NCBI GenBank assembly: GCA_964518475.1
Contig: CAZFGR010000030.1
Location: forward strand, 1-18,364
DNA: 18,364 nucleotides
Origin: an uncultured Nitrososphaerota archaeon
Lineage (GTDB): Archaea; Asgardarchaeota; Njordarchaeia; Njordarchaeales; Njordarchaeaceae
Direction of reading: 5' to 3'
Part shown: positions 15,759-18,364 of the stretch, in pieces
How positions within the stretch are numbered: position 1 is the stretch's first letter
How the letters are laid out: every line of letters begins with the position of its first letter
The notes under the pieces: model-generated
Databases searched by the model: none
The model's input: the letters and a program-made list of their open reading frames with translations, nothing else
What the model was told of the DNA's origin: nothing
Program-made: the position numbers and the translations under genes

Positions 15759-16202
15759 TTAAGGCAGCATCTGCAAAGCCTCTTCGGGCGTGAATATTTC
15801 TAGCTTACACCTTGTCTCTTTTGTAATTAAATTAAAGTGGGATACATTCCTGGTAACAAGCGGTATCTCATTTCTGCAACATATAGCTGCTATAAATACA
15901 TCCCTCAATCCCACTAGTTTCCCCTTCTTATGCAACATCGCGTCAATTTCTGCAGCAATCCTAGCAGATTCAGCATCAAGAGGCAACACAGTAACCCACA
16001 ACAAGAATGTTCTTACATCATCCAGCTCTTTTTCATACCCCCCATAACTTGGGCCATATATCAATTCATACACAGTTATGGATGTGACAAAGAATCGAAC
16101 CCTATCCCGCGATTCCCTGATCAATTTACTCGCTGCGGAACTCTGATCTTTCAAGAACTCAATAACAACGTCGGTATCTAAACAGAGTTCCAGCGCTTCC
16201 AC
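15759..16202 (-). CDS. vapC: VapC toxin (PIN-domain ribonuclease)
   Basis: PIN acidic motifs LDTDVVI, ITVYEL, LRDVFIAA and VTRNVSHF. Overlaps the upstream antitoxin gene. Confidence 0.92.
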   Translation of the reverse strand: MEALELCLDTDVVIEFLKDQSSAASKLIRESRDRVRFFVTSITVYELIYGPSYGGYEKELDDVRTFLLWVTVLPLDAESARIAAEIDAMLHKKGKLVGLRDVFIAAICCRNEIPLVTRNVSHFNLITKETRCKLEIFTPEEALQMLP

Positions 16203-16408
16203 CTCTCCCTAATTACTTCGAGCAATTCCTTAACATCAACACTTTCCCAACTACCAGCCAACTCATCCAACTTCTTAACCTTTTGAATAATAATCTCATC
16301 GCCCTTCAGAGTAATCTTTACGTAATCCCCCTCTTTTATCCCAAGCTTCTTTGCTATCTTACTCGGAATCGTTATTTGCCGATTCCTAGTAACTTTGACA
16401 ACAGCCAT
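16178..16408 (-). CDS. vapB: AbrB/MazE/SpoVT-type antitoxin
   Basis: VKVTRNRQITIPSKIAKKLGIKEGDYV is the AbrB signature, with an LAGSW tail. GGTGAGG RBS at 16419-16413. Directly upstream of the PIN gene. Confidence 0.92.
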   Translation of the reverse strand: MAVVKVTRNRQITIPSKIAKKLGIKEGDYVKITLKGDEIIIQKVKKLDELAGSWESVDVKELLEVIRERWKRWNSV

Positions 16409-16898
16409 AAGTCCTCACCACTCACTAACAATTCCTAACTATTAACAATGTTCTCTACTAGATATAAAATTTCTACTATAAAATGAGTTGGCTACTATAA
16501 TATAAATCATTAGTAAGAAAGAACAAACATTTCAATTGTTTCTCAGTATTTTTGAGAGCTTCAGGTTGGGCCAGAATAGTGAACACCACTCCATAAAAAT
16601 AACTACTGAGGTACAATTACTCTGAAAGGCACACGAAAATTCCCGAATAGCTCTGTTCTTCTCAAAATAGTTTGAAATAGTCAAATGAACGGGCTCTATT
16701 TTAGGCTCTTACTCGTTTTTTCTTTCTCACCGCTCCATTGCTAATCATTGATTAAGATAGCCATACGACTTCATCGACTACTGAATACTAGTGTAGATCC
16801 AGCGGTACAAGTTCTACAGAAATGGTACCCCTAACACCCACCAGTTCAAAATTTCCAAAAAAGACATTCCGCTACATGTATTTCTCTAATGATAAACA

Positions 16899-16928
16899 TT
16901 TATAACATAATTACGTAATTACATAATA
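16899..16928 (+). promoter_or_regulatory. TATA box plus operator of the second vapBC operon
   Basis: TTTATAA (16899-16905) runs into 3x ACRTAATW (16905-16928), which contains the palindrome TAATTACGTAATTA (16908-16921). Confidence 0.6.
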
Positions 16929-16955
16929 ACTAATGAAATTCAGAAGGAGTTAGTT

Positions 16956-17207
16956 ATGAAAAATAAGTACACCACGATACCCGTTACAATAGAGGTAAAA
17001 ATGATTCTAGAAAAGATAAAGGGGAATCAGGACTGGAGCAGCTTTCTAAAAAATCTCGTAGAGGAATACTTAAGGCTCAAGAGAATAATTGCGGCGCGTG
17101 AACTCCAGCTAAGATTTAGTGAGGAAGTGGAGAAAGCCTTGATGGAGTCAATACGATCCATGAGAAAACTAAGAATGAGGGAGATATTTGGTGAAGATAG
17201 CCATTGA
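16956..17207 (+). CDS. vapB: Putative VapB antitoxin (ribbon-helix-helix-like)
   Basis: YTTIPVTIEVKMILEKIKGNQDWSSFLKNL fits the archaeal RHH-like antitoxin pattern. AGGAG SD upstream; overlaps the downstream PIN gene. Confidence 0.8.
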   Translation: MKNKYTTIPVTIEVKMILEKIKGNQDWSSFLKNLVEEYLRLKRIIAARELQLRFSEEVEKALMESIRSMRKLRMREIFGEDSH

Positions 17208-17586
17208 CACTGACGTCCTAATATACCTAGTCAAGAATAAGCTTCTAGAACGCTTCCTAGAGAAATACGACGGATGCATCACAGCCATAACAGAATACGA
17301 ATATATGAGAGGAGAAGTAAAAGCAGGTGTTAAACCAAGAATATCAAAACAAACACTCAGCGAAGCCTTCGAAATTCTAGAACTCGATAACAAAAGTATA
17401 ACGATAGCATCAAAAATATGGTCAAGCCTAAGCAAGGAAGGAGAAATAATTGATGAGAGAGACCTATTAATTGGTGCCATCTGCATAGCACATAATGTCC
17501 CATTATGGACCTTCAACAAGAAACACTTCGAGAAGCTCAAAAAATTCAAACTCGTACTCAAAGACATTGACCTGCAAGAACTGTGA
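17191..17586 (+). CDS. vapC: VapC toxin (PIN-domain ribonuclease)
   Basis: IDTDVLI, ITEYE, ERDLLIGA and WTFNKKHF. GTG 17191 follows GAGGGAG (17177-17183); the ORF track starts at 17188. Confidence 0.92.
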   Translation: MKIAIDTDVLIYLVKNKLLERFLEKYDGCITAITEYEYMRGEVKAGVKPRISKQTLSEAFEILELDNKSITIASKIWSSLSKEGEIIDERDLLIGAICIAHNVPLWTFNKKHFEKLKKFKLVLKDIDLQEL

Positions 17587-17810
17587 AATCAAACCATATA
17601 AGCATAAAGGAGTCTTTGGGAAAATTGTCATAGTTGTATACAAATCTCGACAACAGGAATCACGATTGGTTATCGTTTCAAGGACATTAACAAGCTGAAA
17701 AGTTATTCATAAAAGCAATAACTAGCTAATTATTGTGCCGCCTTAATTAATTCCGAAAGTAAAAACCCCTGCCTAGTTCTATAATAAGAGCTCCGAAATT
17801 GTATCCTATG

Positions 17811-17860
17811 GCTTCTTTTTAGAAAAAAGCGAGAAGGAGAAAAGAGATCGAGAAAAGTTT
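17811..17860 (-). terminator. Pyrimidine/oligo-T terminator for the last ORF
   Basis: The minus strand reads CTTTTCTCGATCTCTTTTCTCCTTCTCGCTTTTTTCT just downstream of the stop at 17876. Confidence 0.5.
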
Positions 17861-17875
17861 ATTTTCAATCAAGTG

Positions 17876-18364
17876 TTAGGATAAGATTGCCTGTAGTGTT
17901 TGTTTGAATCTTTTGAGTCTTTTTGATACTCTACTCGGATGCAAATTTACTTCTTTTCCTATCTCGTATAATGATTTGCCCTCTAACCTCATGAGGATTA
18001 TTTTTATGTCTTTCTCATCGAGCTTCTTAAGCATCTCTAACTTCCCGTTTCCTTTTTCCTCAGAGGATATATAATAGTATTTAATCTTGAGGTTTTTTAT
18101 CAAGGGTATATCGTGCATAAGAAATGTTTCGCCCCAGGAAGTAGTTATTACTGCTTTGTCCAAGTCAGAATGATTCAGATAAATATTTTTTGTGATCTCC
18201 TTAAGAACCTCGTAGTATGCATTACCAACGTAGTTGCGTATTAAATCGTTGTCCCGCTTATCCATTAATAAGCTCTTGAAGGCGAGAATTGGGGAGTTAC
18301 GAAATGTTGGATCGAGATTATAAAATCTTTGTGTAATGAACATTATTATTAACACACCCTTATC
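17876..18364 (-). CDS. 5'-truncated protein: probable C-terminal half of an FtsK/HerA-superfamily ATPase fused to a C-terminal HTH
   Basis: The frame is open to the window edge (DKGV...). LIIMFITQRFYNLDPTFRNS matches the hhhhTQ...(L/I)DxxhR motif. C-terminal LDEKDIKIILMRLEGKSLYEIGKEVNLHPSRVSKRLKR is a sigma70-r4/LuxR-like HTH. Confidence 0.65.
   Translation of the reverse strand, partial: DKGVLIIMFITQRFYNLDPTFRNSPILAFKSLLMDKRDNDLIRNYVGNAYYEVLKEITKNIYLNHSDLDKAVITTSWGETFLMHDIPLIKNLKIKYYYISSEEKGNGKLEMLKKLDEKDIKIILMRLEGKSLYEIGKEVNLHPSRVSKRLKRFKQTLQAILS

Follow-up and report, generated by a model that had tools for sequence, protein, structure and literature searches.

What kind of protein is encoded at the very end of contig CAZFGR010000030.1, and is it part of a mobile element? 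The window analyzed here, i.e., the whole stretch of 18,364 nucleotides, comes from an uncultured archaeon of the Njordarchaeales (Asgardarchaeota) and is identical to this contig (C30), one of 121 in a metagenome-assembled genome (MAG) of 2.33 Mb. The affiliation to the Njordarchaeales follows from a genome of the same genus, one contig of which is identical to a contig of "Candidatus Njordarchaeum guaymaensis". An open frame on the minus strand of the window extends from position 18364 to a stop codon at 17876-17878. An earlier note, made from the letters of the sequence, read this frame as the C-terminal half of an FtsK/HerA-superfamily ATPase, possibly Zot-like, with a fused helix-turn-helix (HTH) domain, and took it as a hint of an archaeal virus or plasmid. 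We found that the protein is a small FtsK/HerA-superfamily P-loop ATPase (B204/A32-like fold) with a C-terminal sigma-70 region-4-type HTH, and that its gene, ATPase-HTH, is the last one in a 2.1-kb decayed integrated remnant (copy A) of a mobile-element family of the Njordarchaeales.

The gene at the contig end and its product

Because the window is the whole contig, the ATPase-HTH gene is cut off by the contig end. Positions 17876-18364 (minus strand) contain the 3' 60% of the gene (489 nt, residues 109-270 of 270 and the stop codon), and the 5' 324 nt lie in an assembly gap past the contig end. The frame is a true gene and not a chance one. The translation quoted in the earlier note is exact, and the fragment is 100% identical to a protein in the database (P0002; 250 amino acids (aa), or 270 aa from an upstream GTG), which is encoded on a 49-kb ENA contig (locus L010). 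L010 and the window are 100% identical over 10.5 kb, and L010:8920-10264 corresponds to the gap between contigs C20 and C30 in the window's assembly.

In the full-length protein from L010, a Walker A motif (GLPGSGKT) and a Walker B motif (VIIIDD) were found upstream of the window part in the same frame, where the earlier note had proposed to look for them; both fit the patterns of the FtsK-HerA superfamily (GxxxxGK[ST] and hhhhD[DE]). Residues G25, G30, K31, D76 and D77 are kept in at least 90% of 66 family members. The conserved family core comprises Walker A, N51, Q71, the Walker B DD(A), EIRH, TQR (Q120), and FRNxP..FK (R130), and R101 of EIRH is invariant across the 66 sequences. The window encodes the back part of the ATPase domain (residues 109-201; 18086-18364, minus strand), as delimited by the AlphaFold2 (AF2) model, fold matches and conservation. 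In the AF2 model, VLIIMFITQ forms strand beta4, TFRN a short helix, and ILAF strand beta5, with a helix over RDNDLIRNYVG, in agreement with the strand, helix, and strand assigned from the letters; after beta5, the window part of the domain consists of two helices and a beta-hairpin. The hhhhTQ...LxxxhR motif is strand beta4 ending in Q120 (TQR, 18326-18334, minus strand), plus R130 (18299-18301, minus strand), and both residues are family-conserved. By alignment offsets, R130 would lie at about the position of R127, the proposed arginine finger of B204, and is a candidate for the same function.

Whole-domain fold matches ranked the FtsK-HerA classes above other ASCE classes, in Foldseek-seeded and exhaustive searches alike. 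The scores were 13.5 for VirB4, 12.8-13.0 for B204 (157-160 of ~200 residues aligned), 11.7-12.1 for HerA, 11.3 for TcpA, and 10.2-10.6 for FtsK, compared to 9.9 for Vps4 (AAA+), 9.3 for the Zot N-domain, and 8.5-8.9 for Orc/Cdc6 (root-mean-square deviation of 10-13 A). Among predicted viral structures, the top matches were an unnamed protein, an "uncultured archaeal virus" protein and a Nitrosopumilus spindle-shaped virus (NSV) protein, followed by giant-virus A32-like ATPases; neighbors in the ESM Atlas include Zot+HTH clusters, which we take as a lead only. Thus, the Walker motifs and the fold matches bear out the assignment of the fragment to the C-terminal part of an FtsK/HerA-superfamily ATPase. 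The fused HTH was confirmed as well: Sigma70_r4_2 matched residues 110-156 of the fragment with 26.6 bits (Pfam cut-off 25.7; E 4.5e-6), and residues 214-270 (17879-18049, minus strand), which have the three-helix fold of the sigma-70 region 4/LuxR-type HTH, matched structures of an archaeal transcription factor and of sigma-F region 4. An HTH is likewise found at the C-terminus of other family members, where it belongs to several Pfam types.

It should be noted that curated sequence libraries returned weak P-loop matches only (nSTAND3, AAA, and PHROG "DnaA-like" families), and that sequence-only PDB searches gave matches at the P-loop level only. The window protein had no match at E<=1 to FtsK_SpoIIIE, DUF87/HerA or similar Pfam profiles, and DUF87 was matched weakly by only 2 of the 66 members. 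For the Zot-like character suggested earlier, the tests at the sequence level were negative: Pfam Zot (PF05707) did not match the protein at E<=1 and was not among the top families of the 66 members, and a search for the C-terminal transmembrane (TM) segment typical of Zot/pI found no hydrophobic segment, the C-terminus being the HTH. The nSTAND3 profile (PF20720) scored 26.1 bits with the full-length protein, under the Pfam cut-off of 27.2 that would place it among STAND NTPases, and was matched weakly by 35 of the 66 members. This match and the sigma-r4/LuxR-like HTH at the C-terminus would be expected of an NTP-dependent transcription regulator, i.e., a STAND/MalT-like switch that would act on genes of the element or of the host and may have been domesticated by the latter. 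Such a role is consistent with the chromosomal location of copy A, beside toxin-antitoxin genes, and with the recovery of its junction with host DNA in an independent hydrothermal-vent run. Nevertheless, a regulator is very unlikely, given the sub-threshold score, the length of only 270 aa without STAND helical or sensor domains, and the rank of the fold among translocases. The patchy, multi-copy distribution of the family also differs from that of a conserved chromosomal regulator, the outcome that would have contradicted the earlier proposal.

The element family and the decay of the resident copy

An exhaustive HMMER search with a full-length paralog detected 192 representative clusters at E<=1e-3 and 42 at E<=1e-10; strong profile matches were present in only 3 of 41 related genomes, and the host genome contains three diverged copies of the module (A, B, and C). 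The fuller members of the family are ~13.6 kb long and contain an integrase, ~ten membrane proteins in a run, a conserved ~105-aa protein, and then the ATPase. For example, L038 (13.6 kb) encodes an integrase, ~ten TM-segment proteins, a 102-aa homolog of the 105-aa protein, and the ATPase, together with a 294-aa protein weakly similar to queuine/archaeosine tRNA-ribosyltransferase (TGT), a PaaX-like winged-helix protein, and a PAPS reductase. L011 (13.5 kb) has a resolvase, L015 (9.6 kb) contains ORFans all on the same strand, and L027, a contig of "Candidatus Njordarchaeum guaymaensis", has a tyrosine integrase 1.1 kb downstream of the ATPase. The proposed link to an archaeal virus or plasmid is supported for the relatives, which reside on virus- or plasmid-like contigs with integrases, recovered from other samples, but copy A itself is no virus genome. 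Open reading frames (ORFs) of ~105 aa also precede the distant ATPases of L027 and L015; their kinship to the window's 105-aa protein was not demonstrable.

Several other features accompany the related loci. The 294-aa protein is conserved downstream of the ATPase (L038:7290-8174, minus strand; L011:2239-3123; L032:317-1201), with a TGT similarity that is under the cut-off (E 2e-4); together with the PAPS-reductase-family protein (L038:12614-13366), it could represent a DNA-modification (DpdA-like) module. Related ORFs of ~360-380 aa are located within a few kb of several module copies (C98:1487-2635, L019:3-959, L027:548-1681, and L027:13137-14222); the tested part had no Pfam match, and a TnpB/IS605-OrfB-like identity is a guess from sequence. 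Copy C (contig C55), in which the upstream genes differ, adjoins a 109-aa fragment of RtcB tRNA ligase (L043:78-1556; positions 65-164 of the 426 in the profile), and the opposite strand carries an ORF for a LAGLIDADG endonuclease; the fragment may be a disrupted or duplicated piece of rtcB at the element border.

The expectation that a whole element lies past the window was not borne out: only ~1.55 kb more of the module is found there, followed by chromosomal genes (DUF1028, ABC permeases, and subtilase), and two of the module genes are truncated or broken. Upstream of ATPase-HTH, L010 contains a 59-aa coiled-coil ORF, a 105-aa ORF, and ORFs of 100, 58, and 57 aa, the last three with two hydrophobic helices each. 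In copies A and B, homology to L038 starts at the same nucleotide, within the 191-aa two-TM gene of L038; therefore, the 59-aa ORF is a 5'-truncated remnant. Together, the three small two-TM ORFs run colinear with a single membrane protein of 226 aa that copy B and L037 encode; a frame change and an in-frame stop part them, i.e., one membrane gene is broken in three. They had no matches in Pfam, PHROGs, or the ESM Atlas, and their interpretation as spindle-virus-like capsid proteins was rejected, as they are colinear fragments of the ~226-aa multi-TM gene. Only the 105-aa gene and ATPase-HTH are intact. No capsid, Rep, or integrase genes, for which the earlier note had proposed to inspect the neighborhood, are present in the copy A module; no tRNA genes or Rfam families were detected in or near it, and no convincing terminal direct or inverted repeats of the module were found. 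Copy B is split across contigs C118 and C98; after ~57 residues, its ATPase frame ends and unrelated DNA follows. In L037 (9711-10382) and L011 (285-1034), a long tail rich in Ser/Asn and Arg/Lys closes the membrane gene; in C118 (1203-1391), this tail is encoded in another frame, one that overlaps two more TM helices, suggesting a frameshift variant or two C-terminal forms.

This state of decay is what would be expected if the gene were an inert relic, intact only since decay has yet to reach it and without function in this genome: the first gene is truncated at its 5' end, a frameshift and a stop divide the membrane gene, the ATPase frame of copy B is interrupted, and copy A has no integrase. 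Conversely, the 270 codons, in AT-rich DNA, retain every catalytic and family-conserved residue; of six database homologs of the 105-aa gene, five are 84-94% identical to it and the sixth 67%; and conservation between copies reaches 75-92% in the promoter-proximal region, so that we give the relic a very small chance. The 105-aa protein was predicted to be all-helical, with a pLDDT of 57 that is too uncertain for a structure search, and a complex prediction of this protein with the ATPase domain (score 0.00) was uninformative either way.

The post-stop block and the proposed role

A conserved non-coding block of ~85 bp directly follows the stop codon of ATPase-HTH (17787-17875, minus strand) and was delimited by comparison of copies; all A/B/L011-type copies carry it in this position. 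An exact 25-mer of the block is common to copy A, copy B, L011/L012/L013, and one congener genome. Homology of copy A ends after ...GGAGCTCT at window position 17787, where the other copies continue together and copy A passes into host DNA. Nucleotide identity between copies is 89-98% in the block, compared to 67-93% in the 105-aa gene, ~40% in the membrane gene, 70-90% in the 5' part of the ATPase, and ~47-55% in its 3' part and the HTH. In the source metagenome, the depth of the block is 3-6x that of its flanks, and the block is joined to at least 4 different sequences on the ATPase side. As a stable RNA, the block was not significant (z -1.4).

With somewhat better than even confidence, we propose that ATPase-HTH is a DNA-guided translocation/egress motor of the mobile-element family, copy A being an integrated remnant. 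A ring-forming DNA motor is indicated by the fold, by the catalytic residues kept in the family, by the location of the gene at the end of a block rich in membrane proteins, and by the closest viral relatives. In this motor, K31 and D76/D77 would bind and hydrolyze ATP, and R130 would work in trans, like the proposed finger R127 of B204. The HTH would tether the ring to element DNA and supply DNA recognition, with the invariant post-stop block as the candidate cis site, and the motor and the upstream membrane proteins would export element DNA from the cell or load it into particles derived from membrane, a role also proposed for the pI/Zot-like ATPases of spindle-shaped Asgard viruses. In copy A, the partners are broken and the motor and 105-aa genes are intact; thus, present activity would rely on other copies or be vestigial.

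Several observations weigh against this proposal. Within the gene, divergence is highest in the HTH region, whereas the block shows no such variation and is invariant; this is weak evidence against a specific pairing of HTH and block. In addition, the block was not found in the long element L038. No capsid families were matched in L010, L011, L015, L027, or L038 by Pfam or PHROGs sequence profiles, an IMG/VR pattern scan with family alignment A2 detected no relatives, and tblastn against deposited phage and archaeal-virus genomes returned nothing. The host genome has two small CRISPR arrays at contig edges (C46:8441-8766 and C82:19-450), and none of their ~10 spacers matched the module copies or related elements, so the CRISPR link sought in the earlier note was not obtained. 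Furthermore, replication initiators, too, combine an ATPase with a DNA-binding domain at the C-terminus, and PHROG "DnaA-like" families gave weak matches (E 4e-7 to 2e-4), which extend to 10 of the 66 members (best E 3.9e-7). BDI55116.1, encoded on the circular 84-kb Asgard mobile genetic element (MGE) 10H_0 (LC711081), is a true homolog (33% identity over 160 residues, E 5e-6) that shares all family motifs and the C-terminal HTH and differs in its length of 355 aa and an inserted middle region; it is labeled "DnaA-like replication initiator protein", which is an annotation and not a tested function.

A DnaA/Orc-like replication initiator of the element is thus the main rival to the export motor: the P-loop domain would oligomerize on an origin, represented by the post-stop block, that is read by the HTH. 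In addition to the layout, the PHROG matches and the label, this explanation is consistent with the conserved non-coding block next to the gene, and with L038 and L011, in which no other recognizable replication gene is present. The fold ranking speaks against it: the predicted fold argues for the FtsK/HerA rather than the DnaA type, and we regard an initiator as rather unlikely.

The short modules could also be self-standing hitchhikers, i.e., satellite- or defense-like units of Asgard archaea in which ATPase-HTH would use the block as a pac/clt-like site; they would be exported via the membrane machinery of L011/L038-type helper elements, or would block the export of these elements. Bearing on this explanation, which we consider quite improbable, are the common start point of copies A and B, at one nucleotide within a truncated gene, the retention of the 105-aa gene and the invariant block in short modules (in copy A, also of an intact ATPase-HTH), and the difference between their sites, one beside toxin-antitoxin genes and one directly against a CRISPR repeat near cas6. 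The latter site is in L037 (9020-9430; ENA ERZ2433807 NODE_17262), where a short module with a truncated first gene, a 106-aa gene, a 223-aa membrane gene, and an ATPase fragment begins, downstream of cas6 and in a Csa3/PglZ/HerA island, right after the repeat. Its sequence is almost the same as that of the repeat in array C46 of the window's genome.

With respect to CRISPR, two matches of 35-38 nt in congeners that appeared spacer-like at first were rejected, as they are in a helicase gene without repeats. The second spacer of C82 matches its own genome at C39:6774-6812 (37/39 nt) and, judging from this match, is probably self-targeting or a marker of an integrated element. Three exact tandem copies of a ~55-nt G+C-rich unit in AT-rich DNA (C4:96883-97080) are no CRISPR array. 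On the host side of the junction, a small antitoxin-like ORF and a PIN (VapC-type) toxin gene (16956-17586, plus strand) lie outside the module. They are one of two toxin-antitoxin pairs (MazE-like and PIN; small antitoxin-like ORF and PIN) at window positions 15759-17586, between the junction and metabolic genes, and neither pair shows homology to related elements. The flanks of copy A in congeners are too diverged, and on different contigs, for an empty-site comparison.

Known systems and implications

The protein is of a kind already known, the small FtsK/HerA-type ATPases of archaeal viruses and MGEs. Its closest compact solved relative is the packaging ATPase B204 of STIV and STIV2, turreted icosahedral viruses of Sulfolobus (PDB 4r2h, 4kfr), of the A32-like FtsK-HerA branch. 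Compared to B204, the identity is 14-18% and the profile match marginal (E 0.0024); the window's protein has a C-terminal HTH and B204 has none, and no double-jelly-roll capsid gene was recognized by sequence profiles beside the ATPase of the window's family. In FtsK (gamma domain, KOPS) and Streptomyces TraB (clt), an FtsK-type motor is directed to specific DNA by a C-terminal (winged) helix domain that reads DNA. The combination of a motor with a DNA-reading C-terminus is similar here, by analogy, the site of the HTH being a candidate; unlike the window's protein, FtsK and TraB are much larger and membrane-anchored, and the HTH type differs.

The pI/Zot-like ATPases of spindle-shaped viruses (wyrdviruses, NMV3 and NSV, the last with a protein among the top structural matches) resemble the window's protein in being small and soluble, with no TM domain, and in ending a membrane-protein-rich module of an archaeal/Asgard MGE. 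According to Medvedeva et al., the ATPase of the spindle-shaped Asgard wyrdviruses is pI/Zot-like, has no TM domain, ends the morphogenetic module, and probably drives extrusion; a 2026 preprint gives the same description for the visualized spindle virus NMV3. In the literature searched, Njordarchaeales are linked only to a rod-shaped virus, and there is no description of a sigma-r4-type HTH fusion of this kind, of the element family of the Njordarchaeales, or of the invariant block after the stop codon.

The known mobile elements of Asgard archaea are very few. Through the small decaying remnant in the window, which belongs to a heat-loving archaeon of the Njord group, an undescribed family of elements from hydrothermal sediments came into view. 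These elements bear integrases and are rich in membrane proteins, some are at least 13.6 kb long, and their hallmark is a B204-like motor ATPase that has its own DNA-reading domain. These results suggest a re-examination of the "DnaA-like initiator" label of the 10H_0 homolog. If the HTH steers the motor to element DNA, the family would bear on how capsid-less or spindle-shaped/pleomorphic archaeal elements select and export their genomes.
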